A stretch of 64,000 bases of DNA from Paracoccus sp. (in: a-proteobacteria) (GTDB lineage Bacteria > Pseudomonadota > Alphaproteobacteria > Rhodobacterales > Rhodobacteraceae). Shown here one piece after another: positions 27,180 to 50,123 of the stretch. The stretch is from positions 72-64,071 of the forward strand of contig NZ_DATMFA010000022.1 in the NCBI RefSeq assembly GCF_035556475.1. Reading direction: 5' to 3'. Every line of letters starts with the position of its first letter. The stretch's first letter is position 1. The notes below the pieces were generated by a model, which did no database searches, had not been told where the DNA came from, and worked only from the letters and a program-made list of their open reading frames with translations. A program made the position numbers and the translations under genes.

Positions 27180-28565
27180 TCAGACGACTGGGGCCGCCTC
27201 GTCCCTGACGGCGCGGGTATCCGGGGCGGGGGATGCCTTTTCGGATTGCCGGGCGGGTGACGCCCCATGTGGGAGGCCATACCGCTCGCGGATGGTTTCG
27301 CCCGGCTTGTAGTGCCGGCGATAGACTCCACGCGACTGGAGGATCGGCACGACCTGATCGACGAAGATGGCGGTGTCCTCGGGGCTGCGGGGTGGCTGCA
27401 CCGTGTAGCCGTCCACCGTTCCATCCGCCCAGAGGTCGATCAACTGGTCCGCAACCTCAGAAGGGGTGCCAAGGACGATGCGATGATGCCCGGCCGAGCG
27501 CCGGGCCGCCTGCCGGGGGGTCAGGTCTTCGTGCCGCAGCAATTCGACCATCCCCAGCAGGAATCCGAGCGCGCCGCCCTGCTCGGGGTCGGGCATCACG
27601 TCATCGGCGCTGAGGACGCGATCGAAGTCGACCTTGGCGGGATCCAGCCCGAACTGGCGCAGGAAGGCCGCGACCAGCTCATCTTCGTTGCGGACGCCGC
27701 TCAGGCGCTCATGCAGGCGCAAAGCGGCCTCGCGGGTCTCGGCGACGAAGGGCACGACGCCGGGCACCAGCAGGATACCCGCCGGATCGCGCCCGTATTC
27801 CGCAGCCTTGTCGAGCAGGCGCTTGCGGAAGGCGAGGCCGGCCTGCCGGGACAGGATATTGGCATAGATGATCTCTCCATGCCGCGCCGCGAAGTCGATC
27901 CCGCTGTCCGAGCCGCCGGCCTGCGCGATGACCGGATGGGTCTGTGGGCTGACCGGGACATTCAGCGGCCCCTTGGCGACGAAGTGATTTCCCGCGAAAT
28001 TCACCGGCTCAGCCTGCCAGCCGGACCAGAAGTTATCGGACGCGCCGGCATCCTTTCCCGGCTTCCAGCTTTGCCAGAGCTGTTTCACCAGATCGAGGAA
28101 TTCCTGCGCGCGCTCATAGCGCTGCTTGCGGGGCGGCAGAGGATCACTGCCGAAATTCGCGGCGACGTCGGGGTTGAAGGAGCTGACCATATTCACGATC
28201 AGCCGCCCCCCGCTCAGCACATCAACGCTCTGGCTGCTGCGGGCAAGGTTATAGGGCGTGTTGTAGGTCGTGGACATGGTCGCGACCAGCCCGATATCGG
28301 GAACCTGCGCCGCCAGATGCGTCAGCAGGATCAGCGGCTCGATCGTGTGAAAGGGGCGGGTGCCAGGGCCTGTGCGCAAGGCCGGATGATCCGAAAGAAA
28401 CAGCGCGTCGAAGCGCCCGCGATGCGCCAGCCGCGCGATCCCGAGGTAAAACTCCGGGTCGTTGACGTCGCGCATCCGGGCCGAGCCATGCGGCCATGCG
28501 CTTTCCAGATAGCCGGTGGTGTTCAGGCCGATATTCAGATGCAACTCGCGCGGGCGGTTCGACAT
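27180..28565 (-). CDS. NtaA/DmoA/DszA-family FMNH2-dependent monooxygenase
   Basis: FDALFLSD, EPLILL, IGLVATMSTTYNTPYNLAR, GPLNVP.SPQ.HPVIAQAGGS. Confidence 0.87.
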   Translation of the reverse strand: MSNRPRELHLNIGLNTTGYLESAWPHGSARMRDVNDPEFYLGIARLAHRGRFDALFLSDHPALRTGPGTRPFHTIEPLILLTHLAAQVPDIGLVATMSTTYNTPYNLARSSQSVDVLSGGRLIVNMVSSFNPDVAANFGSDPLPPRKQRYERAQEFLDLVKQLWQSWKPGKDAGASDNFWSGWQAEPVNFAGNHFVAKGPLNVPVSPQTHPVIAQAGGSDSGIDFAARHGEIIYANILSRQAGLAFRKRLLDKAAEYGRDPAGILLVPGVVPFVAETREAALRLHERLSGVRNEDELVAAFLRQFGLDPAKVDFDRVLSADDVMPDPEQGGALGFLLGMVELLRHEDLTPRQAARRSAGHHRIVLGTPSEVADQLIDLWADGTVDGYTVQPPRSPEDTAIFVDQVVPILQSRGVYRRHYKPGETIRERYGLPHGASPARQSEKASPAPDTRAVRDEAAPVV

Positions 28566-28589
28566 TCTGCTGTCCTTGTGATGATTTCG

Positions 28590-29015
28590 TCAGGCCGGGC
28601 GGAGCATGTTCAGCGCCAGACGGAGGTTCTGCGCCTCGGCCAGCGAGGGATTGCGGCGCATGACCAGACTGCTCCACGCCCGTGCATGTCTTCGGACCGC
28701 CTCGGGCGCGTCGGTCAGGATGACGGTGGGATAGGGCAGCGGCATCAGGGGCAGGCGGCTGCTGTCACCGGGACAGATCAGCACCGCGGCGTTGACGCAA
28801 AGCTCCAGATGCCGCGTGGTCAGGTTCAGCAGCGTCGGAACCCAATGGTTCGTGGCGATGATCGTGGCCCAGGGCAGGGCCTCAAGCAGACGACGCAAAG
28901 GCTCCTTGCGGGGGCGCGTGGGGTCGATGCCATGATCCAGCGGCGCCACGACCCTGTCGCCGGAAAGAAGCACCTGCGCTGCGTCTGCCGCATCAAGGCT
29001 GTGGAAATCAGGCAT
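28590..29015 (-). CDS. Short degenerate RBBP9/YdeN-like alpha/beta protein lacking the catalytic serine
   Basis: AAVLICPGD...LPYPTVIL...ARAWSS resembles the YdeN family, but AHSLG is replaced by ATNHW. Confidence 0.5.
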   Translation of the reverse strand: MPDFHSLDAADAAQVLLSGDRVVAPLDHGIDPTRPRKEPLRRLLEALPWATIIATNHWVPTLLNLTTRHLELCVNAAVLICPGDSSRLPLMPLPYPTVILTDAPEAVRRHARAWSSLVMRRNPSLAEAQNLRLALNMLRPA

Positions 29016-29198: not shown

Positions 29199-29221
29199 AT
29201 GTATATTGCACAAGTAGATTT
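29199..29221. promoter_or_regulatory. Candidate Rrf2 operator 1
   Basis: ATGTATAT-N7-GTAGATTT, 18 nt upstream of the 29239 start. Confidence 0.65.
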
Positions 29222-29238
29222 ATCTTATGGGATGACCG

Positions 29239-30477
29239 ATGCAAAACCCCGTCCGCGCAAACCTGCATGTCGAGGCGAAGGCGCCCCGGCTGGACCAGAT
29301 CCTCGCCTCGCTGCCAGCGCTGGTGGATCGCATCAGGGCCGGTGCGGCGCAAAGGGACCGCGAGCGTATCCTGCCCTTCGAGGCGTTCGACTGGCTCCGG
29401 CAGGCGGGGATAGGAACGCTTCTGGTGCCGAGGGAGCGCGGCGGTCCGGGCGGCAAGCTTGCCGATTATATCGAGGTGATCCGTCAGCTTGGCGAGGGCG
29501 ACAGCAACGTGGCCCATGCGCTGCGCAGCCATTTCAACTTTGCGCAGGCCATCGTGCTGCGCTCGGTCGACCAGCCCGACGATCTGGCCTTTCAGCGATT
29601 GCTGTCCGGCGCGATCTTTGGCGGGGCGCATACCGAGAACCTGACCCGCCATCCCGGCGATATCGGCACCACCCTGACCCGGCAGGGCGATCACTACCGC
29701 CTGAATGGCCGCAAGCATTACGCGACCGGCACGGCATTTGCCGATTTCGCCTCGATCAGCGCGACGGATGAGCAGGGCGAGCTGGTCTTTGCCATGATCC
29801 CGACCGACCGCGAGGGGGTCGAGATTCTGGATGACTGGGACGGCATGGGCCAGCGGCTGACCGCCTCGGGCGGGATCGTCCTGCGTGACGTGCGGGTTGA
29901 GGTCGAGGAGATCGGCCAGCGCGACATCAACAGCTTCATCGGTCGCCACACCTCGACCATGCGGCAGCTGCATCTTGCGGCTTCAGCGGCCGGGGCGGTG
30001 GCGGCGGCGCTGCATGACGGGCGGGACTATGTGCTGAACCACGGGCGCGCGGCGACGCATAGCCATGCGGATTTCGCCCGCGACGACTTCTTCGTGCAGA
30101 AGGTGTTGGGCGATATTGCCGCGCTTTCCTATGGCGTCGATGCCGCGATCCGTGAGGCCGCGCGCGAGCAGGAGGCGGTGGCCGACGCGATCCTGTCCCG
30201 CGCCTCGGATGAGCAGGTCGAGCGGCTGCTGGTGCAGGCCTCGATCAACGGCGCAAGGGCGCAGCTTGTCTCGGGTCAGCTGGCGCTTGAGGCGGCGGGC
30301 CGGATCTTTGAGCTGGGCGGCGGCTCGGCGACCTCGCAGCGGTTCAACCTGGACCGGCATTGGCGCAATATCCGCACGGTCCTGAACCACAACCCGCTGA
30401 ACCACAAGGCGCGGGTCATCGGGGATTATCTGCTGAATGGCACCACGACCCACCTGCTGGAAGGCAAGGTGTTCTGA
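29239..30477 (+). CDS. DszC/SfnB-like flavin-dependent monooxygenase (ACAD fold)
   Basis: LNGRKHYATG, DDWDGMGQRLTASG, NLDRHWRNIRTVLNHNP; no TEP..GSD ACAD motif. Confidence 0.82.
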   Translation: MQNPVRANLHVEAKAPRLDQILASLPALVDRIRAGAAQRDRERILPFEAFDWLRQAGIGTLLVPRERGGPGGKLADYIEVIRQLGEGDSNVAHALRSHFNFAQAIVLRSVDQPDDLAFQRLLSGAIFGGAHTENLTRHPGDIGTTLTRQGDHYRLNGRKHYATGTAFADFASISATDEQGELVFAMIPTDREGVEILDDWDGMGQRLTASGGIVLRDVRVEVEEIGQRDINSFIGRHTSTMRQLHLAASAAGAVAAALHDGRDYVLNHGRAATHSHADFARDDFFVQKVLGDIAALSYGVDAAIREAAREQEAVADAILSRASDEQVERLLVQASINGARAQLVSGQLALEAAGRIFELGGGSATSQRFNLDRHWRNIRTVLNHNPLNHKARVIGDYLLNGTTTHLLEGKVF

Positions 30478-30481
30478 AAAG

Positions 30482-30506: not shown

Positions 30507-30513
30507 TTCCGTC

Positions 30514-31560
30514 TTAGCCGCGCGCGCGCAGGAATGCCGGTTCCTGCCCCGAGCCGCGGCTGACGCGACCCTCGATCGGGTGGCTCGGATCGTTGAAGCC
30601 ATGGGTCGAGGCATGGCCGGGCGTGACCAGCCCGTCGACCAGCGCCTCGTCCTCGGCGGTCAGCTTGGTGCCAAGCGCCTCGACATAGCCATCCCAATGC
30701 TCCTCGGTGCGCGGCCCCGCGATGGTCGAGGTGACGAGGCGGTTCTCCAGCACCCAGGCCAGCGCGAATTGCGTGGGCGTCAGGCCCCGCGCGCGGGCAT
30801 GTTCGGCGACCTGATGGGCGATCTGGACCGATTCAGGCCGCCATTCGGTTTCAAGGAGGCGCTTGTCACCGCGACCGGCACGGGTGTCCGCTGCCGGAGC
30901 CTCGCCGGGGACGTATTTCCCGGTCAGGACGCCACGTGCGAGGGGGGAATAGGTGACCGCACCCAGACCGAAGTAACTCGCGGCCGGCAGTTCCTCGCGT
31001 TCCGCCGCGCGGGTGACGATGTTGTAGAGCGGCTGGCTGGCGATGGGGCGGTCGATGCCCAGCTTGTCGGCAAGATGCGCCACCTCGGCGATGCGCCAGG
31101 CACGGAAGTTCGAGACGCCGAAATAGCGCAGCTTACCCTGCTGGATCAGGTCGCCGATGGCGCGCAGCGGCTCCTCCAGCGGGGCGTCGAAAATGGCGCG
31201 GTGGAAATACAGCAGGTCGATATAGTCGGTGTTCAGGCGCTTCAGCTGGCCCTCGACGTTCTGGATGATCCATTTGCGCGACTGCCCGCCAAGGTTCGGC
31301 CCAACGGTCTTGGAGTTGGTGAACTTGGTCGCCACGACCCAATGGTCGCGATGCTTGGCAATGCCCTTGCCCACGGTCGTTTCAGAGGCGCCATCGTGAT
31401 AGACGTCAGCGGTGTCGATGAAGTTGATGCCCTGTTCGCGGGCCTTGTCGATGATGCGGAAGGCCACATCGTCCGGGGTCGGGCCGCCGAACATCATCGT
31501 GCCGAGCGTGATGGGGGAAACTTTCAGGGCGCTGCGTCCCAGATAGCGATATTCGACCAT
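30514..31560 (-). CDS. Aldo/keto reductase
   Basis: YRYLGRSALKVSPITLGTMMFG, IDTADVY, VATKF, YFHR, YSPLARGVLTGKY; start trimmed to MVEY. Confidence 0.9.
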   Translation of the reverse strand: MVEYRYLGRSALKVSPITLGTMMFGGPTPDDVAFRIIDKAREQGINFIDTADVYHDGASETTVGKGIAKHRDHWVVATKFTNSKTVGPNLGGQSRKWIIQNVEGQLKRLNTDYIDLLYFHRAIFDAPLEEPLRAIGDLIQQGKLRYFGVSNFRAWRIAEVAHLADKLGIDRPIASQPLYNIVTRAAEREELPAASYFGLGAVTYSPLARGVLTGKYVPGEAPAADTRAGRGDKRLLETEWRPESVQIAHQVAEHARARGLTPTQFALAWVLENRLVTSTIAGPRTEEHWDGYVEALGTKLTAEDEALVDGLVTPGHASTHGFNDPSHPIEGRVSRGSGQEPAFLRARG

Positions 31561-31745: not shown

Positions 31746-31768
31746 TTGTTGACTAACTTTGTGTATAT
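31746..31768. promoter_or_regulatory. Candidate Rrf2 operator 2
   Basis: TTGTTGAC-N7-GTGTATAT between the divergent AKR and SBP genes. Confidence 0.6.
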
Positions 31769-31839
31769 TGTCAATAAATGTGGCTATCAGATGGCGCGCC
31801 AGAAGCCCGCATCGCAACCTGACAAGCGACGGTAATCAT

Positions 31840-33447
31840 ATGGAATACAGTGAAAATATCTCTCGCCGTGGCATATTGCTCGGCTCTGCCGCGCTGGCTG
31901 CCGGAATGGTTTTCCCCGTGGGTAAAATCCTTGCACAGCAGGGCAAATCCGGCGGCACTGCGGTCATCGCGATCAGCTCGGAGCCGCCGGTGATCTCGGC
32001 CCTTGGCCATACCGCCTATTATACGGTCCTCGTCTCGGCCAAGACGAACGAAGGGCTGCTGACCTATGATTTCGACCTGACGCCCAAGCCGCAGCTGGCG
32101 ACGGAATGGAAGATCAGCGATGACGGCCTGCGCTATGACTTCACCCTGCGGCAGGGGGTCAAATGGCATGACGGCCAGCCCTTCACCGCCAAGGATGTGG
32201 CCTTCTCGATCAATACGATCCGCGAGGTTCACCCGCGCGGCCGCAATACCTTTGCCAATCTCGACCGGATCGAGGTGCAGGACGACCATCACGTCAGCCT
32301 GATCCTGCGCGCCCCCGCGCCCTATCTGATCCGCGCCCTTGCCGCATCGGAAACGCCCATCGTCGCTGCCCATGTCTATGCCGAGGGCAAGCCGCTGGAA
32401 AATCCCGCGCAGAACGCGCCCATCGGCACCGGACCCTACCTTTTCCGCGAATGGGTGCGCGGCAGCCATATCGTCTATGATCGCAACCCGGATTACTGGG
32501 ACGCGCCGAAGCCCGCCATCGACCAACTGGTCATCCGCTTCTTGCCCGACGCCGCCGCACGCACCGCCGCGATCGAATCCGGCGAGGTGCATGTCGCGCC
32601 GGGCGAGCCCATCCCTCTGGCCGATCTGGCGCGGATCGAGCAGAACCCGGAGCTGGGGCTGGAATGGAACGGCTATCAATATGCGAACGGCGTCCGCCGG
32701 GTCGAGTTCAACCTCGACCGCCCGATCTTTCAGGACCGCCGGGTGCGCAAGGCATTCGCCCATGTGATCGACCCGCAGGTTCTGCTGAACCTCACGAATT
32801 ACGGCTATGGCGCGGTGCTGAACGGCCCGATCCACCCGGCGCTGAAGGATTATCACTTCGCCGACCTGCCCCTGCACGAGATCAGCCCCGAGAAGGCCGA
32901 GGCGCTGCTGGATGAGGCGGGCCATCCGCGCGGCGCGGACGGCACGCGCTTCAGCGTCGCCCTCGACTACGTTCCAGGCAACGAGGGCACGCGACGCGGC
33001 GCAGAATATATCCGGCAGGCGCTGCAACAGGTCGGGGTTGATGCGCAGATCCGCGCGCAGGATTTCGCGACCTATACCAAGCGCGTCTATACCGACCGCG
33101 ACTGGGATTTCCTGTATAACGGCATGTCGAACCTGTTCGACCCGCAAGTGGGTGTGCAGCGGCTTTATTGGTCGAAGAACTTCAAGCCCGGCATCCCGTT
33201 CAGCAATGGCGCCCATTACCAGAACGCCGAGGTCGATCGGCTGCTGGAATCCTCGGCCGTGCAGAACGACCATGAGGCCCGGCGTCAGGAATGGCGGCGC
33301 GTGCAGGAGATCCTGCATGAGGACGTGCCGTCGATCTATACCGTGACCAGCCCCGAACACACGGTTTTCAGCCGCAGGCTGGCCGGGCACACGCCCGACG
33401 GCACCGGCCTTTTCGGCAATGCCGCCGATCTGCATTTCGTCGCATGA
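31840..33447 (+). CDS. Family-5 ABC substrate-binding protein (Tat signal), paralog 1
   Basis: SRRGIL, LRQGVKWHDGQPFTAKDVAFS, IGTGPY, YWSKNFKPGIPFSNGAHY. Confidence 0.9.
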   Translation: MEYSENISRRGILLGSAALAAGMVFPVGKILAQQGKSGGTAVIAISSEPPVISALGHTAYYTVLVSAKTNEGLLTYDFDLTPKPQLATEWKISDDGLRYDFTLRQGVKWHDGQPFTAKDVAFSINTIREVHPRGRNTFANLDRIEVQDDHHVSLILRAPAPYLIRALAASETPIVAAHVYAEGKPLENPAQNAPIGTGPYLFREWVRGSHIVYDRNPDYWDAPKPAIDQLVIRFLPDAAARTAAIESGEVHVAPGEPIPLADLARIEQNPELGLEWNGYQYANGVRRVEFNLDRPIFQDRRVRKAFAHVIDPQVLLNLTNYGYGAVLNGPIHPALKDYHFADLPLHEISPEKAEALLDEAGHPRGADGTRFSVALDYVPGNEGTRRGAEYIRQALQQVGVDAQIRAQDFATYTKRVYTDRDWDFLYNGMSNLFDPQVGVQRLYWSKNFKPGIPFSNGAHYQNAEVDRLLESSAVQNDHEARRQEWRRVQEILHEDVPSIYTVTSPEHTVFSRRLAGHTPDGTGLFGNAADLHFVA

Positions 33448-33454
33448 GGTGAAC

Positions 33455-34474
33455 ATGGATACGCTTTGGTATACACGCTGCCCGGTTCCGACTCCGGTAG
33501 GGCTGGCTGTGCAGCTTGGCCTGCTGGATCGCGCCTTTGCGGCCAAGGGGGTCGAGCTTGCCTCGATCATCGACAGCAAGGACCGCAATATCCGGCAAAG
33601 CCATTTCAACCACACCCTGAAATGGTCGTTCCGCCTTGGCGGTAACGTGCCCCCGATCCGCGCCCGGTCCGAGGGGCGGAATACCCGGCTGATCGGCGTC
33701 ACCTGGACCGACGAGTATCAAGCGATCATCGCGCTGCCGGAAAGCGGCATCCGCAGCGCCTCGGATCTGGAAGGGCGCAGGCTGGGCGTCCCGAAACAAC
33801 CCGAGGGTGATGTTTTCGTCGTCGATTTCTGGCGGGCCAGTGCGCTCAAGGCCTTCGATTCCGCCCTGACCATCGCCGGTCTGGCGCGCAGCGAGGTCGA
33901 GCTGGTCGACATCGCCTTCTCGGAGAGCGTGCTGGATAGCCACGAGGCCGACCGCTTCGGCCTTGCCCGCCGCATCCCCTATGGCCCGGAAATCGCGGCG
34001 CTGTTCCGGGGCGAGGTCGATGCGATCTTCGTCAAGGGTGCCTCGGGGATTGCCGCCGCGAACCTTATCGCGGCGCAGGAGGCGGTGTCCTTCGGCTTCC
34101 ATGACGATCCCGCGATCCGCATAAATTCGGGGACGCCGCGCCTCCTGACCGTCGATGCGGCGCTGCTGGACGAACGGCCCGATCTGGCGGCGACCCTGAT
34201 CGGGACCATCCGGCAGGCGGGCGAATGGGCCGCCGCCCATCCCGACGACACCGCCCGCTTTGCCGCCCGTGAAACAGGCGCCAGCGAAGAGCAGATCCAT
34301 GTGGCCCACGGCCCGCGCTTTGCCCAGAGCTTCGGTCTGTCGCTGGAGCCCGAGGCCCTGGCCGCGGTGGAAAGCTACAAGGATTTCCTGCTGGCCGAGG
34401 GTTTCCTTGCCGCCGATTTCAGCATTGCGGATTGGGTGGACCGCCGCGCATGGGATCAGGCGCTGGCCGCCTGA
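33455..34474 (+). CDS. DszB-like arylsulfinate desulfinase homologue 1 (cytoplasmic)
   Basis: DTLWYTRCPVP, SHF, FRLGGNVPP align with DszB Cys27/His60/Arg70/Gly73; no signal peptide. Confidence 0.72.
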   Translation: MDTLWYTRCPVPTPVGLAVQLGLLDRAFAAKGVELASIIDSKDRNIRQSHFNHTLKWSFRLGGNVPPIRARSEGRNTRLIGVTWTDEYQAIIALPESGIRSASDLEGRRLGVPKQPEGDVFVVDFWRASALKAFDSALTIAGLARSEVELVDIAFSESVLDSHEADRFGLARRIPYGPEIAALFRGEVDAIFVKGASGIAAANLIAAQEAVSFGFHDDPAIRINSGTPRLLTVDAALLDERPDLAATLIGTIRQAGEWAAAHPDDTARFAARETGASEEQIHVAHGPRFAQSFGLSLEPEALAAVESYKDFLLAEGFLAADFSIADWVDRRAWDQALAA

Positions 34475-34917
34475 TCCTCGCCCGTAAGCGGACCGCTCAG
34501 CGGGACCGAGCTGCAAAGATCCTGCAGGGTGCGATGCTCCAGAATGGCCAGCATCGCATCGCGCACTTCCAGCATCAGCAAACGGATCTCGCAGGCGCTT
34601 TGCGTCGGGCAATCGTGGCATTTGCGATAGGCGGTCTTGCTGACGCAGGAAATCGGCGCGATCGGCCCGTCGATCACGCGCAGGATCTGGGCCACGCTGA
34701 TCGTGTCGGCCGGCCGGGCAAGGGAATACCCGCCCGAGCGGCCCTTGCGCGTCTGGATCAGACCAGCCTGACGCAAATCGGCAAGGATGGTGTCCAGAAA
34801 CTTCTTGGGAATGCCGTTCGCGTTGGCGATGGCAGTCGACTGCCGCACTTCGCCCGGATCAAGGCGCGCCAGCTCGATAAGCGCCTTGATGCCGTATTTC
34901 CCCTTCATGGTCAGCAT
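34456..34917 (-). CDS. Rrf2 family transcriptional regulator with a four-Cys C-terminal motif
   Basis: MLTMKGKYGIKAL, IPKKFLDTIL, GRSGGYSLARP, CVS..YRKCHDC....C. Confidence 0.9.
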   Translation of the reverse strand: MLTMKGKYGIKALIELARLDPGEVRQSTAIANANGIPKKFLDTILADLRQAGLIQTRKGRSGGYSLARPADTISVAQILRVIDGPIAPISCVSKTAYRKCHDCPTQSACEIRLLMLEVRDAMLAILEHRTLQDLCSSVPLSGPLTGEDQAASA

Positions 34918-40722: not shown

Positions 40723-41708
40723 AGGCGATCCTCCGAAAAGCGGGGGTTCAGGGCGTCGTTCAGGCCGTCGCCGATCAGGTTCAGCGCGAGCACCGTTACG
40801 ACAATGGCAAGGCCGGGCAGGGCGGTCAGATACCAGGCGGTGCGGATCATCTCGCGCCCGCCGCCGATCATCGACCCCCAGGAGACCACATTGGGATCGC
40901 CAAGGCCCATGAAGGACAGCGCCGATTCCATCAGGATCGCCCCCGCGACCATGACCGAACTGGTCACGATGATCGGCGGCAGCGCGTTCGGCAGGATCTC
41001 GCGAAAGATGATATGGCCGTGGCCAAAGCCCAGACTGCGCGCGGCGGTGACGAAGTCGTTCTGGCGCAGGCTGCGGAACTCGGCCCGGGTCAGGCGGGCG
41101 ACGGTGGGCCAGGTGACGATCGCGATTGAAAGCGTGATCGTCGTCGCATTTGGCCCGAGGATCGCGACGAGGACTACGACAAGGACAAAGCTGGGCAAGG
41201 TCTGGAAGATCTCGATCAGGCGCGACAGCACCCGGTCGGTCACGCCGCCGAAATAGCCCGCGAGCGCACCGACGACGATGCCCACGCCCAGCCCCAGCGC
41301 GGTCGCGGCGACGCCGACGTAAAGCGAGATGCGCGCGCCATGGACCAGCCCGGCCAGCACGTCGCGGCCCATGGAATCCGTCCCCAGCGGAAAGGCGGGA
41401 TCCTGTCCGGGCCACAGAAAGGGCCGCCCCACCATCGCCAGCGGATCGCGCGGGAAAAGCAGGGGCGCGGTCAGCGCGCAAATGGCCATCGCCAGCAGCA
41501 CCACGATGCCGAAGATGGCATTCGGATTGCGCAGGAACAGCTTCAGCTCGGCATAGCCCTGTCGCGGCGGCAGGTGTGCCGTGGTCGCGCTGCGGGCGTC
41601 CGGGGCGTGGATATGGCGCCATTCGGGCTGCGGGGCGGGCGACTGGGGCGCGTTGCGCGCGGCGGGGGTCGCCAGCGCCTTGTGAAGCGTGCTGTCGGCG
41701 GGCATCAA
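40719..41708 (-). CDS. ABC permease (OppC/DppC)
   Basis: FPLGTDSMGRD, FVTAARSLG, ILPNALPP. Confidence 0.9.
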   Translation of the reverse strand: MMPADSTLHKALATPAARNAPQSPAPQPEWRHIHAPDARSATTAHLPPRQGYAELKLFLRNPNAIFGIVVLLAMAICALTAPLLFPRDPLAMVGRPFLWPGQDPAFPLGTDSMGRDVLAGLVHGARISLYVGVAATALGLGVGIVVGALAGYFGGVTDRVLSRLIEIFQTLPSFVLVVVLVAILGPNATTITLSIAIVTWPTVARLTRAEFRSLRQNDFVTAARSLGFGHGHIIFREILPNALPPIIVTSSVMVAGAILMESALSFMGLGDPNVVSWGSMIGGGREMIRTAWYLTALPGLAIVVTVLALNLIGDGLNDALNPRFSEDRL

Positions 41709-42691
41709 TTCGCTCCTATCCGGGGGTCGAGGCGGGACTGAAGCAGGTCCACCAGCCCGTTGACCACGATCACGACCAGCGAGGACAGCAGCAGGATTCC
41801 CAGGAGGACGTTGAAATCCCGCGCCATCACCGCCTCGAAGGCCAGCCGTCCAAGGCCGGGCCAGCTGAACACCGTTTCGACTACGACGGCGCCGCCCAGC
41901 ATGTTTCCGAAATGCATCCCCGCCATGGTCGTGACCGGGATCAGCGCGTTGCGCAGGATATGCGAAAGGGTGATCCGCAGCGGCGACAGGCCCTTGGCGC
42001 GCGCGGTGCGGACATAGTCCTGATTGCGGATCTCGAGCATCGCGGCGCGGGTCAGCCGGGCGTAGATCGCGACATAGAACAGCGACAGCGACATCGCGGG
42101 CAGGATCATGTAGCGCGCGTTGTCCAGCACGGCCGCCCAGCCGGTCAGGCTGCTGCCGATGGTGCCCGACCCGCCCGAGGGCAGCCAGCCCAACTTGACC
42201 GAGAACAGCAGGATCAGCATCAGCCCGATCCAGAAGCCGGGGATGGAATAGAAGAGCAGCGACAGGACCGACAGCAGGCGGTCGGGGATGCGGCCGGCGA
42301 AACTGGACATCACCGCGCCAAGCGCGACGCCCAGCACCACGGCCAGCCCCAGCGCCGTCGCCATCAGGATCAGCGTGCCGGGCAGTCGCTGCATGATCAG
42401 GTCAAGCACGGGCATGGCGTAGCGGGGGGAGTGCCCCAGATCGAGCTGCGCGAGATGCAGAAGATAGGTCTTGAGCTGTTCGAGAACGGAGAGGTCCAGC
42501 CCCATACTGCGGCGCAGCGCGGCCATTGTCTCCTCGGTCGCCGATCCCGCCTCGGCCGCGATCACGTCCGCTGCATCACCGGGCGCCAGTTGCAGCAGCA
42601 GGAAGTTCAGCACGACGATGCCCAGCACGGTGGGAATGGCGTGAAGGAAGATGCGCCAGATCTGGCGCGGGACGGATTTTCTTTGCGCCAT
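41705..42691 (-). CDS. ABC permease (OppB/DppB)
   Basis: LAPGDAAD, DYVRTARAKGLS, HILRNAL, ETVFSWPGLG. Confidence 0.92.
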   Translation of the reverse strand: MAQRKSVPRQIWRIFLHAIPTVLGIVVLNFLLLQLAPGDAADVIAAEAGSATEETMAALRRSMGLDLSVLEQLKTYLLHLAQLDLGHSPRYAMPVLDLIMQRLPGTLILMATALGLAVVLGVALGAVMSSFAGRIPDRLLSVLSLLFYSIPGFWIGLMLILLFSVKLGWLPSGGSGTIGSSLTGWAAVLDNARYMILPAMSLSLFYVAIYARLTRAAMLEIRNQDYVRTARAKGLSPLRITLSHILRNALIPVTTMAGMHFGNMLGGAVVVETVFSWPGLGRLAFEAVMARDFNVLLGILLLSSLVVIVVNGLVDLLQSRLDPRIGAN

Positions 42692-42744
42692 GATCGGCCT
42701 CGCTGCGTTTCTGCGGCTGCCCCGTCAACCGGGGATGGGGTTCA

Positions 42745-42767
42745 AAATACACATGAACAGTAGACTA
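42745..42767. promoter_or_regulatory. Candidate Rrf2 operator 4
   Basis: AAATACAC-N7-GTAGACTA, 54 nt upstream of the transporter operon. Confidence 0.65.
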
Positions 42768-43166: not shown

Positions 43167-44759
43167 ATGACCCTTTCCCGACGCCAGTTTCACCAGATCA
43201 TCCTTGCCGCCGGTGCCTATGTGGCGCTGCCCGGCGGCGGCCATGCCGCGACCGAAGGGCCGGTCAGTGGCGGCACGCTGAAGATCGCCTATTTCCCCGA
43301 GCCGTCGCAGCTTGTCGCCATCAACACCAGCGCGGGCGGCGCGCAATTCGTGGGCTCCAAGATCTTCGACGGGCTGCTGACCTATGACTATGACCTGACG
43401 CCCCGACCCAGCCTTGCGCGGGAATGGACGGTGACGCCGGACGGGCTGGAATATGTCTTCCAGCTTCAGCCCGATGCGAAATTCCATGACGGGCAGCCGC
43501 TGACCTCGGCCGATGTGGCCTTTTCGATCCTGCGTCTGAAGGAGGCGCATCCGCGCGGTCGCATCACCTTCGCGCATGTCGAAAGCATCGACAGTTCGGA
43601 CCCGCATGTCGTTCGGATCGAGCTGGCAAAGCCCGCGCCGGCGCTGCTGTCGGCGCTCGCCGCCTCGGAATCGCCGGTCGTTCCCAGGCATGTCTTCGAG
43701 GGGCTGGAACCCGGCCAGAATCCCGGTCCGGGGCAGATCATCGGCAGTGGGCCTTTTGTCCTGAAGGAATGGACCCCCGGCAGCCATATCACGCTGGACC
43801 GCAATGCCGATTACTGGGCCGAGGGGCAGCCGCACCTAGACAGGGTGATCATCCGCCTGATCGGCGATGCCGGGGCGCGGGCGGCGGCGCTTGAGACGGG
43901 CGAGGTCGATATCGGCGAAAACCCCGTCGCGCTCGCCGATATCGAGCGGTTCCGCTCGGTCCCCACCCTCAGGGTCGATGACCGGGTCTATACCTATTCC
44001 GGGCTGCTGAACCAGTTGGTCCTGAATCTGGACACGCCCGAGTTGAAAGAGCTGAAGGTCCGGCAGGCCATAGCCCATGCGATCGACGTGAAGGCGCTGA
44101 TCAACCTCGTGCTTTACGGCTATGCCATCCCTTCGCCGACGCCGATCCCGCCCAGCTTCAAGCAGTTCCACAACCCCGATATCGGCTTTGCGGCTTTCGA
44201 CACCGCGCTGGCCGAAAAGCTGCTGGACGAGGCGGAGTTCCCACGCAAGAAGGATGGCAGCCGGTTCAGGCTGCGGGTGACGACGAACCCGTTCAACGCG
44301 CCGGCCTATTCCGATTTCATCGCGCAATCGCTGATCGCCATCGGGATCGCGGCGGAGATCCAGCGCTTTGATTTCGCGACCTATGTGAAGACCGTCTATA
44401 CCGACCGGGCCTGGGATCTGTCGGTGGAATCGCTCTCTTCGACCTTCGATCCGACGGTTGGCGTCCAGCGTGTCTATTGGAGCAAGAACTTCAAGCTCGG
44501 CTTGCCGTTCTCGAACGCGAGCCATTATGCAAACCCCGAGGTCGACCGCCTGCTGGAGGCCGCCGCGATCGAGCCTGACGTGGAAAAACGCGCGCAATAT
44601 TTCAAGGAATTCCAGCAGATCATCGCGCAGGACTTGCCGGTGATCAATCTGGCCGTGCCGGTGCAGCCCGTGGTCAGCAGCCTGCGCGTTCACGACTATG
44701 CGCCGGGCGCAGCCGGGCTTGGCGGCAACGTCGCCCGCACCTGGATCGGCGAGGTCTGA
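43167..44759 (+). CDS. Family-5 ABC substrate-binding protein (Tat signal), paralog 3
   Basis: SRRQF, KFHDGQPLTSADVAFS, IGSGPF, YWSKNFKLGLPFSNASHY; start trimmed to MTLSRR. Confidence 0.9.
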   Translation: MTLSRRQFHQIILAAGAYVALPGGGHAATEGPVSGGTLKIAYFPEPSQLVAINTSAGGAQFVGSKIFDGLLTYDYDLTPRPSLAREWTVTPDGLEYVFQLQPDAKFHDGQPLTSADVAFSILRLKEAHPRGRITFAHVESIDSSDPHVVRIELAKPAPALLSALAASESPVVPRHVFEGLEPGQNPGPGQIIGSGPFVLKEWTPGSHITLDRNADYWAEGQPHLDRVIIRLIGDAGARAAALETGEVDIGENPVALADIERFRSVPTLRVDDRVYTYSGLLNQLVLNLDTPELKELKVRQAIAHAIDVKALINLVLYGYAIPSPTPIPPSFKQFHNPDIGFAAFDTALAEKLLDEAEFPRKKDGSRFRLRVTTNPFNAPAYSDFIAQSLIAIGIAAEIQRFDFATYVKTVYTDRAWDLSVESLSSTFDPTVGVQRVYWSKNFKLGLPFSNASHYANPEVDRLLEAAAIEPDVEKRAQYFKEFQQIIAQDLPVINLAVPVQPVVSSLRVHDYAPGAAGLGGNVARTWIGEV

Positions 44760-44878: not shown

Positions 44879-44901
44879 TCGTCCATATGATCAGTGTATA
44901 T
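44879..44901. promoter_or_regulatory. Candidate Rrf2 operator 5
   Basis: TCGTCCAT-N7-GTGTATAT, 17 nt upstream of the 44918 start. Confidence 0.65.
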
Positions 44902-44917
44902 TTAAGGGGATAGCAGC

Positions 44918-46276
44918 ATGACCCGCATCGTTTCCAGCTCTGCCCGGATGTCGCTGGGCCTGTTCCTGATGGGGGCGGGGCATCACATTGCGGCTTGGCG
45001 CCTGCCCGACGCACCGCCGGGCGCCGCGACCTCATTCGACCATTACCGCGAGATCGCGAAGGCTGCCGAGGCGGCGAAGTTCGACATGGTCTTTCTGGCC
45101 GACAGCGCCTCGATCCGCGAGTTCGGTCAATCCTCCATCGGATCGGACGAACGCGCCGTGCGGCTGGAGCCGCTGACGCTGCTTTCGGCGCTGAGTGTCG
45201 CGACGGATCGCATCGGCTTGGTCGCCACGGCCTCGACCACTTATAACGAGCCCTTCAACCTCGCGCGGCGCTTCGCCTCGCTCGACCTGCTGAGCGGCGG
45301 GCGCGCGGGCTGGAATCTGGTCACAACCTCGAATGCCGAGGACGGGCCGAACTATTCGCTCGACGCGCATCCGCCCCATGCCGAACGCTATGCCCGCGCC
45401 GAGGAGTTCGAGGAGGTTGTCCGCGGCCTTTGGCACAGTTGGCAGGGGGGCGACGCTTTCCCGATCGACAAGGCGGCCGGGCGGCTCTTCAACCCGGAGA
45501 ACCTCCACCCGCTCGCCCATCGTGGGCGTCATTTCAGCGTGCGGGGGCCGCTGGGGGTTCCGCCCTCGGCGCAGGGGCATCCGGTGATCGTGCAGGCCGG
45601 CGCCTCGGATGCGGGGCGCGAGATCGCGGCGCGCTCCGCCGAGGTGATCTTTGCCGCGCATCAGAATTTCGACGATGCTTTCCAGTTCTATCAGGACGTC
45701 AAGGGCAGGATGGCGCGATACGGCCGCGCGCCCGACAGCCTGCGCATCCTGCCCGGCGTCTCGCCCTATATCGGGCGCACGCGGGCCGAGGCGCAGGCGG
45801 CATTCGACGAATTGCAGGCACTGGTCACGCATGAGGTGGGGTTGAAACTGCTGCAACCCTTTGCCGGCGGGCTGGACCTGCGCGACCATGACCCGGACGG
45901 TCCGCTGCCCGATCTGCCGCCGACGAAGGACGCCATAGGCCGCCAGAAGCTGCTGGTCGATCTGGCGCGGCGCGAGAACCTGACCATCCGCGAGCTTTAC
46001 CTGCATATCGCGGGCGCGCGCGGCCATTGGCAACTGGTCGGCACCGCCTCGGATATTGCTGATGAGTTGGAGCATTATTTCAGGAACGGCGCGGCGGACG
46101 GGTTCAACATCATGCCGCCCGCGCTGCCGCGTTCGCTGGGGCCGATCAGCGAGCTTTTGCTGCCGGAACTGCGCCGGCGGGGGCTTTTCCGCGACGACTA
46201 TACCGGCAGCACCCTGCGCGAGCATTTGGACCTGCCGCGCCCCGATCTGCCCGCATTCCCGCAATCCGCCGCATGA
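44918..46276 (+). CDS. NtaA/DmoA/DszA-family FMNH2-dependent monooxygenase
   Basis: GHHIAAWR, FDMVFLAD, EPLTLLSAL, STTYNEPFNLARRFASLD, GHPVIVQAGAS, ADGFNIMP. Confidence 0.9.
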   Translation: MTRIVSSSARMSLGLFLMGAGHHIAAWRLPDAPPGAATSFDHYREIAKAAEAAKFDMVFLADSASIREFGQSSIGSDERAVRLEPLTLLSALSVATDRIGLVATASTTYNEPFNLARRFASLDLLSGGRAGWNLVTTSNAEDGPNYSLDAHPPHAERYARAEEFEEVVRGLWHSWQGGDAFPIDKAAGRLFNPENLHPLAHRGRHFSVRGPLGVPPSAQGHPVIVQAGASDAGREIAARSAEVIFAAHQNFDDAFQFYQDVKGRMARYGRAPDSLRILPGVSPYIGRTRAEAQAAFDELQALVTHEVGLKLLQPFAGGLDLRDHDPDGPLPDLPPTKDAIGRQKLLVDLARRENLTIRELYLHIAGARGHWQLVGTASDIADELEHYFRNGAADGFNIMPPALPRSLGPISELLLPELRRRGLFRDDYTGSTLREHLDLPRPDLPAFPQSAA

Positions 46277-46285: not shown

Positions 46286-47647
46286 ATGAGCCGCAAAATC
46301 GCCCTCGGGGCCTTTCTCCATCCCTCCGGCCATCATGTCGCCGCGTGGCGCCACCCCGCTGCGCGGGCCGATGCGGGGATCAATATCCGCAACTATATCC
46401 GGCTGGCGCAACTGGCCGAGGCGGCAAGCTTCGATCTGGTGTTCCTGGCCGACCAGATCGCGGTGCCGTCGTCCAATCTGGACTATGCCAGCCGCACAAC
46501 TCGCGCGACCTATTTCGAGCCGTTGACCTTGATTGCGGCCATCGCGGCGGCGACCCAGCGGATCGGGCTGGTCGCGACGGTCTCGACCAGCTTCAACAGC
46601 CCCTACAACATGGCGCGCTATATCGCGTCGATCGACCATATCTCGGGCGGACGGGCAGGGTGGAACCTTGTCACCTCCGGCTCGGAACTGGAGGGTGAGA
46701 ATTTCGGCCTCGGCGACGATTACCGCCTTCATGCCAATCGCTACCGGCAGGCGGCCGAGTTTGCCGAAGTGGTCCGTGGCCTCTGGGACAGTTTCGAGGC
46801 TGGCGCGGTGGCGGATGACCGCGCCGCCGGGCGCTATCTGGATGAGGGGCGCGTCCATGCCCTGCACCATCGGGGCGAGCATTTCCGGGTGAAAGGGCCA
46901 TTGTCGCAGCCCCGTTCTCCGCAGGGCCAGCCGGTGCTGGTGCAGGCCGGTTCCTCGCCCGCCGGGCGCGATCTGGCGGCGCGCTCGGCCGAGCTGGTCT
47001 TTACCGCGCAGCCCACACTGGCGCAGGCGCAGGAATTCTATGCCGACGTCAAGGCCCGCGCGGTGGCATTCGGCCGCGCGCCCGAGGACATCCTGATCCT
47101 GCCCGGCGTCTTTCCGGTCGTCGGCCGGTCCGATGACGAGGCGCAGGAGAAATTCGCCACGCTGCAAAACCTCATCACCCCCGAGGTTGGGCGCGAATAC
47201 CTGTCGCTGCATCTTGGCGGCATCGACCTCTCCGGCCATTCCGACGACGATCCGGTTCCCGAGGTCGAGGTGGGCGAGCGTGGCCATGTCTCGCGCCCGC
47301 TGTTGCTGCTGCAAAAGGCCCGCAGCCGGAACCTGACGATCCGCGACCTTTATCTGGAAATCGCCGGCGCGCGCGGCCATTGGCAGATCGTCGGCACGCC
47401 CGAAACCATTGCCGATGAGCTTGAGGCCTATTTCACCCAAGGTGGCGCGGACGGCTTCAACATCATGCCGCCCTCACCCACCGGGCTCGACGATTTCATT
47501 GAGCTGGTCCTGCCCGAATTGCGCCGGCGCGGGCTGATCCGCGACCAATACGACGCCCATACCCTGCGCGGCCATCTTGGGCTGAAGATCCCGGCCAACC
47601 GCTTTGCTGCCGCGACCGCCCGGCCGCGCGAACAGGCTTTGGCCTGA
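46286..47647 (+). CDS. NtaA/DmoA/DszA-family FMNH2-dependent monooxygenase (tandem paralog)
   Basis: GHHVAAWRHP, FDLVFLAD, EPLTLIAAI, PQGQPVLVQAGSS, ADGFNIMP. Confidence 0.9.
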   Translation: MSRKIALGAFLHPSGHHVAAWRHPAARADAGINIRNYIRLAQLAEAASFDLVFLADQIAVPSSNLDYASRTTRATYFEPLTLIAAIAAATQRIGLVATVSTSFNSPYNMARYIASIDHISGGRAGWNLVTSGSELEGENFGLGDDYRLHANRYRQAAEFAEVVRGLWDSFEAGAVADDRAAGRYLDEGRVHALHHRGEHFRVKGPLSQPRSPQGQPVLVQAGSSPAGRDLAARSAELVFTAQPTLAQAQEFYADVKARAVAFGRAPEDILILPGVFPVVGRSDDEAQEKFATLQNLITPEVGREYLSLHLGGIDLSGHSDDDPVPEVEVGERGHVSRPLLLLQKARSRNLTIRDLYLEIAGARGHWQIVGTPETIADELEAYFTQGGADGFNIMPPSPTGLDDFIELVLPELRRRGLIRDQYDAHTLRGHLGLKIPANRFAAATARPREQALA

Positions 47648-47671
47648 ACCTTTCAACGACATGAGCATCCT

Positions 47672-48937
47672 ATGGCACAGTTTATCGAAGCCCTTCCCGT
47701 CAGCGCCCGCTATGAGGCTTTTGCCGCGAAGGCCCGGCCCTTTCTGGAGCAGGTTCGCGCCGAGGCGGTCGATCGCGAGGCCAAGCACCGGCTGCTGCAT
47801 CAGGAAGTTGCCGAAGCGATCCGGCTGGGCCTGACCCGGCTTCGCCTGCCCGAGGCGCAAGGCGGGGCAGGTTTCGATCTGGTCGAATTCTTCGCCGCCG
47901 TCATCGAACTGGGCGCGGCTGACCCGAACCTTGCCAATGCGCTGCGTGCCAATGCCGGGATCCTCGAGGATGCGCTGGCGCGGCCCGGCCTTGCATGGAG
48001 CCAGTTGGTCGCGGCCGAGATCGCCTCGGGCAAGCTGGTCGGCAGCGGTGCGTCCGAAATCGGCGGCGCCACCAACCGCAGCTATGAGACGGTGCTGCGC
48101 CCGGATGGCGGCGACTATCGCCTCAGCGGGCGGAAGTTCTATACCACCGGTTCGCTCTATGGCGACTATCTCAACACCTATGCCCTGACGCCCGAAGGCG
48201 CGACGGTCACGCTGATCGTGCCGACCAAGGCCGATGGCGTGACGATCCTTGACGACTGGGATGGCTTTGGCCAGCAATTGACCGCCTCGGGCACCGCGTT
48301 GCTGGAGGATGTGGTGATCCGCCGCGAATGGGTGCGCCCGACTGCGGATCGCTTCCCCCATGCGCATGGTTTCTTCCAGCTTTACCACATCGCGACCATG
48401 GCCGGGATCGCGCGCACCATCGCAGAGGAGGCGACCGATCAGGTGATTGCGCGCAACCGCAGCTATCCCGGCCGCTCGAATGCCGAGCGCAGTGCGGACG
48501 ATCCCCAGATCCAGCAGGTGCTGGGGCGGCTGGCCTCGGTCGCCTATGTCACGCGGGCCGCGACGCTTCAGGCCGCGCGCGGGTTGCAGGACGTCCATGA
48601 CCGCGGCCGGGACGAGGTCGACGCGGAGCGGTTGAACGAACTCAGCGCCATCGCCGAGCTGCATGTCAGCCAGACGGTCACGATCGTGACCGATCTCGTG
48701 CTCGAGGCGGCGACGGTGCTGTTCGACACGCTGGGCGCCTCGGCTGCAAAACGCTCGCACGGGCTGGACCGGCATTGGCGCAATGCCCGCACGCTGGCCT
48801 CGCATAATCCGCGCATCTTCCACGACCGGCTGATCGGGCGCTTTGCCGCCACCGGGGCGATCCCGGATTCCTTCGGACTGCAGGCGCGTCCCATCGCCGG
48901 GCCGGTGCCCGGTCGCCCGCAACTCGTCACTGCATGA
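47672..48937 (+). CDS. DszC/SfnB-like flavin-dependent monooxygenase
   Basis: LSGRKFYTTGSLY, DDWDGFGQQLTASG, GLDRHWRNARTLASHNP. Confidence 0.83.
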   Translation: MAQFIEALPVSARYEAFAAKARPFLEQVRAEAVDREAKHRLLHQEVAEAIRLGLTRLRLPEAQGGAGFDLVEFFAAVIELGAADPNLANALRANAGILEDALARPGLAWSQLVAAEIASGKLVGSGASEIGGATNRSYETVLRPDGGDYRLSGRKFYTTGSLYGDYLNTYALTPEGATVTLIVPTKADGVTILDDWDGFGQQLTASGTALLEDVVIRREWVRPTADRFPHAHGFFQLYHIATMAGIARTIAEEATDQVIARNRSYPGRSNAERSADDPQIQQVLGRLASVAYVTRAATLQAARGLQDVHDRGRDEVDAERLNELSAIAELHVSQTVTIVTDLVLEAATVLFDTLGASAAKRSHGLDRHWRNARTLASHNPRIFHDRLIGRFAATGAIPDSFGLQARPIAGPVPGRPQLVTA

Positions 48938-48944
48938 GGCCGCG

Positions 48945-50123
48945 ATGACCCTGCAATATGCCCCAGAGGCCGCCCGGACGACCCATCTGCCCGGTCCGGC
49001 CGATTTTCCCGACAGTCCGCTGTCCCGCGCCTTGCGCCAACCGACGCTGCTGGGCCTGTTCCTGCCGATTCAGGCCGGAGGCTGGACGGATTCCACGCTG
49101 CCCCGCAGCACCGACTGGCGCTTTGACTATAACCGCGATCTGGTGCTGGAGGCCGAGCGGCAAGGCTTCGATCTGGTCTTTGCGCTCAGCCAGTGGTTGC
49201 CGAAGGGTGGCTATGGCGAGGTGCTGAACGGTCAGGCGCTGGACAGTTTCATCACCACGGCGGCACTGGCGGCGGTGACGCAGCGGATCATGCTGATTTC
49301 CACGATCCATGTCCTCTATGGTCCGTGGCACCCGCTGCATCTGGCGAAATTCGGGGCGACGCTGGACCATATCAGCCGCGGACGCTGGGGCATCAATGTC
49401 GTGACCGGCCACCGCGCCGTCGAGCATGAGATGTTCGGTTGGACGAGGATCGAGCATGACCGGCGCTATGAGCTGGCCGCCGATTTCCTCGATGCGGTCG
49501 GCCAGCTTTGGGCCGCGGATGAAAACTATTCCCATGTCGGCGAGCGCTGGCAGATGAAGGATGCCTTCGTCACGCCGAAGCCGAATTTCGGGCGCCCGAT
49601 TCTGGTCAATGCCACCGGATCCGATGCCGGGCTGGATCTGGCGGCGCGCTATTCGGACATCGTTTTCGTGACCTCACCGGGCGGAGCGGACATCGCCTCG
49701 GCGCTGGAGACCTTGCCGGACCACACGGCCAAGGCCAAGGCGCGCGCCCGCGCCCAGGGGCGCGAAATCCGCACGCTGCTGAACCCGCTGATCGTGGCCC
49801 GCGATACCGAGGCCGAGGCGCTTGCCTATGCCGATGGCATCGTCGCGCATCACGGCGGGCGCAAGCCGATGGGCGCTGGCCGCTTCGACAGCGATGCGCA
49901 GGCCTGGAAAGGGCATATGGCGAAGAACGACCCCTATGCGAAGGTTGGCGGCAATATCTACCTGATCGGAACGCCCGAGCAGATCGTCGAGAATCTGGTC
50001 AGGCTGAAGGCAGCGGGCGTCGATGGCTTCCAGCTGTCCTTCTATGACTTCGCGCCCGACCTCGCCTATTTCGGCGACCGGATCCTGCCGCTGATGAAAG
50101 AGGCCGGATTGCGGCATGGCTAG
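48945..50123 (+). CDS. SfnG/SsuD-like luciferase-class monooxygenase
   Basis: GGW...TDW.FDYN, GPWHPLHLAK..ATLDHIS.GRWG.NVVTG, GTPEQIV. Confidence 0.8.
   Translation: MTLQYAPEAARTTHLPGPADFPDSPLSRALRQPTLLGLFLPIQAGGWTDSTLPRSTDWRFDYNRDLVLEAERQGFDLVFALSQWLPKGGYGEVLNGQALDSFITTAALAAVTQRIMLISTIHVLYGPWHPLHLAKFGATLDHISRGRWGINVVTGHRAVEHEMFGWTRIEHDRRYELAADFLDAVGQLWAADENYSHVGERWQMKDAFVTPKPNFGRPILVNATGSDAGLDLAARYSDIVFVTSPGGADIASALETLPDHTAKAKARARAQGREIRTLLNPLIVARDTEAEALAYADGIVAHHGGRKPMGAGRFDSDAQAWKGHMAKNDPYAKVGGNIYLIGTPEQIVENLVRLKAAGVDGFQLSFYDFAPDLAYFGDRILPLMKEAGLRHG

Follow-up and report, generated by a model that had tools for sequence, protein, structure and literature searches.

Near absence of cysteine and methionine from the soluble products of a putative organosulfur-scavenging gene cluster of Paracoccus sp.

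The DNA analysed here is a stretch of 64,000 nucleotides (the window) from contig NZ_DATMFA010000022.1, positions 72 to 64,071, of a Paracoccus sp. of the family Rhodobacteraceae (RefSeq assembly GCF_035556475.1). Positions 27180–50123 of the window carry a cluster of 19 genes, and the 13 soluble enzymes and substrate-binding proteins (SBPs) which it specifies are almost devoid of cysteine and very poor in methionine. These comprise four luciferase-like monooxygenases (LLMs), three flavin oxygenases resembling DszC and SfnB, two homologs of the desulfinase DszB, three SBPs of family 5 and one aldo-keto reductase (AKR); the other genes encode two permeases, two ATPases, an Rrf2-family regulator and the orphan orf141. 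Together the 13 proteins hold 2 Cys and 37 internal Met, that is 39 sulfur residues in 5603 amino acids (0.70%). We consider it likely that this composition reflects sparing of the element itself: the soluble products would be made under sulfur limitation, probably in high copy number, and selection would have stripped them of Cys and Met down to a functional floor.

The same-genome baseline, which is local and not the whole proteome, consists of 35 non-cluster proteins of the window; they contain 445 Cys plus Met in 11602 amino acids (3.84%). At that rate approximately 215 sulfur residues would be expected in the cluster set in place of the 39 observed (Poisson P = 2.5e-49; Mann-Whitney P = 7e-8). 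The two ranges are disjoint, the cluster maximum (1.53%) lying below the control minimum (2.08%), and the edges of the affected region are sharp, with values of 3.8% and 3.3% for the flanking genes at 26202–26999 and 50310–51512. Six unrelated protein families of the cluster are all depleted. Since the paralogs within it share only 30–52% identity, they are not recent copies of one another.

Extreme sparing had been put forward in the original prediction on the basis of hand counts, all of which were reproduced exactly on recounting. SBP3 (43167–44759, plus strand; 530 amino acids, PF00496, Tat-type signal SRRQF) has no Cys and no Met other than the initiator, and the mature protein would hold no sulfur at all; the chance of a protein of this length lacking both residues at the background rate is P ~1e-9. 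SBP1 (31840–33447, plus strand; 535 amino acids, Tat-type signal SRRGIL) has no Cys and, beyond the initiator, only Met23, which belongs to the signal peptide, and Met429 (0.37%), leaving a single Met in the mature form. The first DszB-like protein (33455–34474, plus strand; 339 amino acids) retains the initiator Met and Cys9 alone, and the third DszC-like protein (47672–48937, plus strand; 421 amino acids) Met1 and Met243 (0.24%). Cys is absent from all four LLMs, all three DszC-like proteins, the three SBPs and the AKR. The two controls which had been named, an SBP at 6214–7767 with 10 Met and 3 Cys and an acyl-CoA dehydrogenase (ACAD) at 51514–52674 with 23 Met and 3 Cys, were likewise as claimed.

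The cluster supplies a control of its own in a minus-strand operon running from 42691 to 34456. Its first four genes encode the subunits of a Dpp/Opp-type ABC transporter: permease B (DppB-like, 41705–42691; 328 amino acids, 0 Cys and 14 Met, 4.27%), permease C (DppC-like, 40719–41705; 328 amino acids, 1 Cys and 8 Met, 2.74%), ATPase D (DppD-like, 39715–40722; 335 amino acids, 5 Cys and 10 Met, 4.48%) and ATPase F (DppF-like, 38787–39734; 315 amino acids, 6 Cys and 5 Met, 3.49%). There follow SBP2 (37181–38767; 528 amino acids, Sec-type signal, 0 Cys and 4 Met, 0.76%), the second DszB-like protein (36186–37184; 332 amino acids, 33% identical to the first, with Cys10 and one internal Met, 0.60%) and the second DszC-like protein (34987–36189; 400 amino acids, 0 Cys and 6 Met, 1.50%). 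The Rrf2-family regulator (34456–34917; 153 amino acids, CymR/IscR-like, 5 Cys and 3 Met, 5.23%) is the last. Thus the three soluble products, at 0.6–1.5%, are depleted, whereas the ATPases, the permeases and the regulator encoded on either side of them are not.

The deficit is specific to the two sulfur residues: Cys stands at 0.03x and Met at 0.24x, while the shares of His, Trp and Tyr are slightly raised. ATG, TGC and TGT are scarce in frame only and occur at normal frequency in the other two frames of the cluster genes; the signal therefore lies at the level of the protein and not in DNA composition. An artefact of the nucleotide sequence or of horizontal transfer, arising either from a donor of odd composition or from avoidance of ATG and TGY in the DNA, might be suggested by the modular nature of the island, a module of SBP2, DszB-like 2 and DszC-like 2 being absent from a syntenic Paracoccus cluster. 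However, the G+C content of the cluster (0.64–0.68) is the same as that of its flanks in a window of ca. 65% GC, the three codons are normal in frames 2 and 3, and the genes interleaved in the same operon have normal sulfur content. These contrasts of GC, frame and operon effectively refute such an artefact, which we regard as extremely improbable.

Cluster proteins lie far below their family baselines as well as below their neighbours. For the SBPs the baseline was obtained with a full HMMER scan of 1.84 billion representatives. The cluster SBPs have 0–0.76% Cys plus Met, compared with 2.3% in their paralog within the window. Members of SBP_bac_5 at ca. 42–47% identity to SBP3 are still mostly depleted, and at 30–40% identity the median is ca. 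2% (about 9 Met and 2 Cys per 540 residues) as against 0–0.2% in the SBP3 clade. Almost all of the 120 closest homologs of SBP3 (50–98% identity) are sulfur-free, 64 of them having neither Cys nor internal Met, and the carriers include Rhizobiaceae, Bradyrhizobium, Mesorhizobium, Paracoccus and Burkholderiaceae, among others. In the ACAD fold the DszC-like cluster proteins have 0.2–1.5%, compared with 4.9–6.5% in the ACADs of the window. The AKR (0.57%) is to be set against 1.9–3.9% in three of the four AKR structures counted (4XK2, 6OVQ, 7UTF); its closest solved relative, 9WK1 (E = 2.5e-64), is also low, with 0 Cys and 2 Met in 333 aligned residues (0.60%). The latter entry is described as 'DON 3-epimerase chain D', and deoxynivalenol-epimerising AKRs may share a sulfur-starvation subfamily with the cluster AKR.

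The same composition recurs in 77 genome loci of Alpha-, Beta- and Gammaproteobacteria collected around SBP3-like genes, in which open reading frames were called and assigned to the families of the window. Median Cys plus Met contents were 0.19% for SBPs (n = 135), 0.30% for DszB-like proteins (13), 0.46% for NtaA-type LLMs (73), 0.57% for AKRs (26), 0.75% for DszC-like proteins (79) and 1.29% for SfnG-like proteins (38). All 26 AKRs lack Cys and none exceeds 0.88%. Permeases B (3.35%) and C (2.12%), the two ATPases (3.54 and 3.93%) and other genes (2.94%) are not depleted. An LLM, DszC-like or DszB-like gene lies within 10 kb of the SBP3-like gene in 61 of the 77 loci, and a block of permease B, permease C, ATPase D, ATPase F, AKR and DszC-like genes recurs in several loci of Rhizobium and Agrobacterium. 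In the syntenic cluster of Paracoccus laeviglucosivorans the depletion pattern is the same gene for gene. The trait belongs to whole clades and is not specific to this genome.

This breadth also lends itself to an explanation by heritage, in which the families descend from low-sulfur ancestors and their composition says nothing about expression here. In favour of this are the clade-wide occurrence of the trait and the DszB of Rhodococcus, which is sulfur-poor too (1 Cys and 0 Met in 333 aligned residues). Inheritance alone does not, however, account for the sites that have changed. With 40–50% of sites substituted, neutral drift would have brought Met and Cys to ca. 3% of them, but 0.1–0.8% is seen: at sites substituted relative to SBP3 the two residues make up 0.14–0.77% within the clade of 50–90% identity and 2.7–3.5% in distant relatives. 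Because this share is so low, Met and Cys have been kept out across approximately 50% divergence, and selection has acted against their regain. Moreover, six unrelated families share the trait only inside these clusters, and wider family members return to about 2%. Heritage without current selection is accordingly an improbable explanation. Where distant relatives have Met, SBP3 mostly has Leu, Val or Ile, and where they have Cys it mostly has Ala or Ser.

The residues which survive are themselves conserved. DszB-like 1 aligns with the DszB structure 2DE2 over residues 2–328 (phmmer E = 3e-19), such that Cys9, the His of 'sHF' and the Arg of 'fRlGG' correspond to the catalytic Cys27, to His60 and to Arg70. 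The protein begins MDTLWYTRCP and has no leader peptide; with this homology and these catalytic residues it is a putative desulfinase. Exactly one Cys occurs in 117 of its 120 closest homologs, and an N-terminal C[PA]xP motif in 119 of them. For DszB-like 2 the Cys column is conserved in 14 of 14 sequences. Both Met residues of the AKR (30514–31560, minus strand; 348 amino acids, PF00248 E = 1e-64) lie in the motif GTMMFG, in which Met22 is found in 26 of 26 homologs and Met23 in 25. The Met of 'NIMPP' in the LLMs is conserved in 56 of 76 sequences.

The family assignments of the depleted proteins point to a role in sulfur acquisition: where members of these families (NtaA/DmoA LLMs, SfnB/DszC-like, SfnG-like and DszB-like) have been characterised, they acquire sulfur and respond to sulfate starvation by induction. 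LLM1 (27180–28565, minus strand; 461 amino acids, 0 Cys and 5 internal Met, 1.08%), LLM2 (44918–46276, plus strand; 452 amino acids, 0 Cys and 5 Met, 1.11%) and LLM3 (46286–47647, plus strand; 453 amino acids, 0 Cys and 2 Met, 0.44%) are members of the NtaA/DmoA family of FMN-dependent monooxygenases, with scores of 356, 533 and 533 bits against the TIGR03860 cutoff of 279.7. The nearest solved relatives of LLM3 are 7E36_B, YtnJ/MoxC, 3SDO and DszA. LLM4 (48945–50123, plus strand; 392 amino acids, 0 Cys and 6 Met, 1.53%) has its best match to the SfnG model TIGR04021, at 198.9 bits and under the equivalog cutoff of 382.95, and is therefore SfnG-like and not an equivalog. SfnB (TIGR04022) is the best-scoring model for DszC-like 1 (29239–30477, plus strand; 412 amino acids, 0 Cys and 3 Met, 0.73%), 2 and 3, although their 283, 340 and 220 bits are all under its cutoff of 430.9; against the DszC model they score 94–171 bits (cutoff 850). 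The nearest solved relatives of DszC-like 3 are TdsC/DszC and the methanesulfinate monooxygenase 6U76.

From these parts we propose that the cluster is an organosulfur-scavenging island. Three periplasmic SBPs would feed a single Dpp/Opp-type importer, and the imported compounds would meet three NtaA/DszA-type and one SfnG-like FMNH2-dependent monooxygenases, three DszC/SfnB-type flavin oxygenases, two DszB-type desulfinases and the AKR, with the Rrf2 protein as the regulator. The soluble products would be needed, probably in high copy number, precisely when the cell is short of sulfur, and each Cys or Met in them would then compete for the limiting element. For that reason selection would have removed both, putting mainly Leu, Val or Ile in place of Met and mainly Ala or Ser in place of Cys, and the removal would have proceeded to a floor of functionally required residues, consistent with the conserved Cys of DszB, Met22 and Met23 of the AKR and the 'IMPP' Met of the LLMs. 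Permeases, ATPases and regulator, if present in low copy number, would experience little such selection and keep a normal sulfur content.

The same enzymes admit of another explanation, namely that residues prone to oxidation or sulfitolysis have been removed as a protection, since two-component flavin monooxygenases give off peroxide and sulfite is a product of the pathway. The cluster enzymes do belong to families of FMNH2-dependent oxygenases and sulfite-releasing desulfinases, and antioxidant defences are reportedly co-induced by sulfur starvation (PMC12581299). Yet among the most depleted proteins are the periplasmic SBPs and the AKR, which handle no reduced flavin; His, Trp and Tyr, likewise prone to oxidation, are not removed but enriched; and sulfur content is normal in the cytoplasmic ATPases of the operon as well as in other flavoenzymes of the window, the ACADs already mentioned and an FAD monooxygenase (3.1%). 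Resistance to oxidation or sulfite is on this evidence an unlikely cause.

We therefore return to sulfur sparing under starvation. The original prediction had moved from the composition of the proteins to their expression during sulfur starvation, and this step is well supported by the roles of the families, by depletion relative to both local proteins and family baselines, by conservation and by published precedents; from these we infer that the cluster products are induced by sulfur limitation and abundant.

Several points weigh on the other side. A search of public RNA runs found none holding the window, and its sequence was met only in DNA assemblies of soil and, in part, mosquito metagenomes. 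The cluster contains no recognised regulator such as CysB, Cbl, SsuR or SfnR. The Rrf2 protein is only a generic member of its family, passing the cutoff of the superfamily model TIGR00738 (115 bits) but scoring 76.9 bits against the CymR model NF047409 (cutoff 195), and the lone short promoter motif shared within the cluster is weak. Part of the contrast with the ATPases and permeases could be due to functional constraint and not to copy number, examples being four conserved Cys in the C-terminal oligo_HPY domain of the ATPases and the Met content of membrane helices. Family baselines cover SBP_bac_5, the ACAD fold and the AKRs; the solved relatives of the LLMs include the non-sulfur members LadA, EmoA, RcaE and HcbA1. 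The homolog counts lack phylogenetic independence.

The motif in question is TGTATATTG, which occurs, with at most one mismatch, ahead of cluster genes in four intergenic regions (29200–29208, 31762–31770, 42743–42751 on the minus strand, and 44895–44903). The window contains 7 matches where 2 are expected, a marginal excess, and 4 of the 7 fall in the intergenic regions of the cluster. A search of six intergenic regions for 14-mers with up to three mismatches gave no stronger or longer shared motif. TGTATATTG, as a lead only, could represent an operator or an element of the -10 type. The Rrf2 protein carries a cluster of Cys residues, C-x8-C-x2-C-x5-C, and may because of it bind an Fe-S cluster. 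As a conserved regulator of such clusters it was rejected, since none of the 77 related loci has it and it is confined to the Paracoccus-type cluster, where it is conserved in P. laeviglucosivorans.

The original prediction had gone further and ranked the SBPs and DszB homologs as the most abundant products. Part of this holds, in that across the 77 loci these two families have the lowest medians, SBPs below DszB-like proteins, and the order is reproducible. As a rule periplasmic SBPs greatly outnumber the membrane components of their transporters, and the normal sulfur content of permeases and ATPases would fit a selection that scales with copy number. Within the window the ranking is not supported, since heterogeneity among the 13 proteins is not significant (chi2 = 16.8, df 12, p = 0.16). 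DszC-like 3 and LLM3 show a depletion as strong as that of SBP1 and stronger than that of SBP2, and SBP2 is less depleted than the AKR. When conserved functional residues are discounted, SBP3, DszB-like 1 and the AKR share the same floor, having no dispensable sulfur residue. Residual counts measure constraint in part, and not abundance, because the Cys of DszB, the Met-Met pair of the AKR and one Met of the LLMs are fixed by function. A ranking of abundance by the extent of depletion, with SBPs and DszB homologs highest, is accordingly doubtful, and to read the family order in this way is a matter of interpretation.

Genes were called over the whole window from the G+C content of third codon positions (GC3), ribosome-binding sites and the lengths of homologs, and the start positions match NCBI gene lengths in the syntenic P. 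laeviglucosivorans cluster on contig FXTK01000015.1 of assembly GCA_900182695.1. Among named organisms, those with the closest counterparts of the cluster proteins are P. laeviglucosivorans (87–88% identity) and Paenirhodobacter populi (75–81%); the source itself is probably an uncultured Rhodobacterales bacterium resembling Paracoccus. In P. laeviglucosivorans the module of SBP2, DszB-like 2 and DszC-like 2 (34987–38767 in the window) is missing and the Rrf2 gene directly follows the ATPase gene (locus L078, 5544–5618); because of this absence the island is taken to gain or lose whole modules of an SBP with its enzymes. A sulfur-poor protein of the glyoxalase family (0.66%) flanks the P. laeviglucosivorans cluster.

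The cluster lacks a gene for a flavin reductase, though all seven oxygenases should need reduced flavin. The orphan orf141 (28590–29015, minus strand), which lies upstream of LLM1 and is undepleted (2 Cys and 3 Met, 3.55%), was considered for this role and rejected, as it has no Pfam or NCBIfam match and three close homologs only, one of them in P. laeviglucosivorans (71%). Its GC3 of 0.80 resembles that of a coding sequence and it is apparently co-transcribed with LLM1. A candidate flavin partner is a sulfur-poor nitroreductase-like protein of ca. 285 amino acids found in four of the related loci (e.g. L019, 17974–18840; L022, 7805–8677).

Other sulfur-poor proteins (≤1%) recur beside SBP3-like genes. 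These include SsuA-like SBPs (9), amidohydrolase-like (7) and rhodanese-repeat proteins (7), FAD oxidoreductases (5), and TauD-like proteins, Sbp/CysP-like proteins, porins and TonB-dependent receptors (3 each); examples are at L011 16332–17423, L013 14545–15567 and L007 6742–7698. In Paraburkholderia and Caballeronia a GroEL paralog of about 546 amino acids adjoins SBP3-like and LLM genes (L056 14721–16412; L065 4409–6049; L066 13587–15227; L067 4347–5987). It has no Cys and no Met beyond the initiator, its C-terminal tail ends GGPGAGGPGFDF, and no GroES gene was seen beside it in those loci. It looks like a replacement chaperonin; a literature search for this sulfur-free GroEL paralog found nothing.

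Sparing of this kind has precedents among sulfate-starvation-induced (SSI) proteins. Rhodococcus (qingshengii) IGTS8 growing on dibenzothiophene has a sulfur-sparing proteome in which SfnG, TauD and AtsA have 0 or 1 sulfur residue (PMC8557817). In Gordonia NB4-1Y the proteome is richer in sulfur amino acids than those oxygenases whose expression is higher on organosulfur sources than on sulfate, and the genes turned on in the absence of sulfate include some for NtaA-type monooxygenases (PMC7661421). Proteomic and transcriptomic data thereby tie a low content of Cys plus Met to induction without sulfate, both in IGTS8 (PMC8557817) and for Gordonia oxygenases of the NtaA type (PMC7661421). For Pseudomonas putida the same two papers cite Scott et al. 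2007 on proteins of low sulfur content. Like the SSI proteins of these three bacteria, the proteins of the present cluster appear to serve sulfur acquisition, have few or no Cys and Met and belong to the same enzyme families. Unlike them, the cluster is known from sequence alone; on the other hand the depletion extends to a clade of family-5 (peptide/nickel-type) SBPs and to an AKR, both unmentioned in PMC8557817 and PMC7661421, and is seen conserved across Alpha-, Beta- and Gammaproteobacteria and in contrast to normal transporter subunits of the same operon.

Two pathways offer closer comparisons. As in the Dsz system of Rhodococcus, the cluster has a DszA-type LLM, a DszC-type oxygenase of the ACAD fold and a DszB-type desulfinase with the residues equivalent to Cys27, His60 and Arg70; it differs in its low identities, its several paralogs, its Dpp/Opp-type importer with three SBPs and the lack of a linked flavin reductase. 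The substrate is probably other than dibenzothiophene. The Sfn/Msu pathway of Pseudomonas (SfnG, SfnB, MsuC, MsuD) provides the best NCBIfam models for the DszC-like proteins (SfnB) and LLM4 (SfnG), and 6U76 is among the solved relatives, but the scores fall under the equivalog cutoffs and no sigma-54 SfnR-type regulator is present.

Older cases follow the same logic of sparing a limiting element. Mazel and Marliere reportedly described, in 1989, sulfur-depleted forms of cyanobacterial phycobiliproteins made under sulfur deprivation, and Baudouin-Cornu et al. are said to have reported, in 2001, sulfur-poor yeast isozymes as a case of selection on atomic composition. There housekeeping proteins are exchanged for sulfur-poor paralogs, whereas here it is the acquisition machinery itself which is depleted; the sulfur-free GroEL paralog of the related loci would match the replacement type.

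Sulfur sparing of SSI proteins, NtaA-type oxygenases included, is thus already documented, and the cluster is a clean new instance which leaves the concept unchanged. The original prediction had passed over the extent of this documentation, and likewise the contrast within the operon and the clade-wide nature of the trait. What it adds to PMC8557817 and PMC7661421 is a clade of 530-residue family-5 SBPs with a predicted sulfur-free mature form, a conserved sulfur-poor AKR and the control afforded by normal subunits within the same operon. More tentatively, and at somewhat less than even chances, these may be parts of a widespread proteobacterial sulfur-starvation regulon, recognisable from sulfur content alone, in which sulfur-free family-5 SBPs would feed a Dpp/Opp importer and be coupled to a conserved AKR/DszC-like pair and to NtaA-type oxygenases acting on some class of organosulfur compounds, joined in some Burkholderiaceae by the sulfur-free GroEL.

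The content of Cys plus Met offers a handle on regulation that needs nothing but the sequence, in that it cleanly parts the soluble products predicted to be expressed in starvation from their neighbours and from the low-copy subunits of the same operon. It marks the family-5 SBP clade, the AKR and many DszC- and NtaA-like paralogs as probable sulfur-scavenging parts in soil Proteobacteria, and can guide the discovery of substrates in organosulfur cycling and in desulfurisation biocatalysis. The cluster also illustrates cleanly how, in nature, selection can act on single atoms; the principle being established already, its value lies in a well-controlled example and in a tool for annotation.

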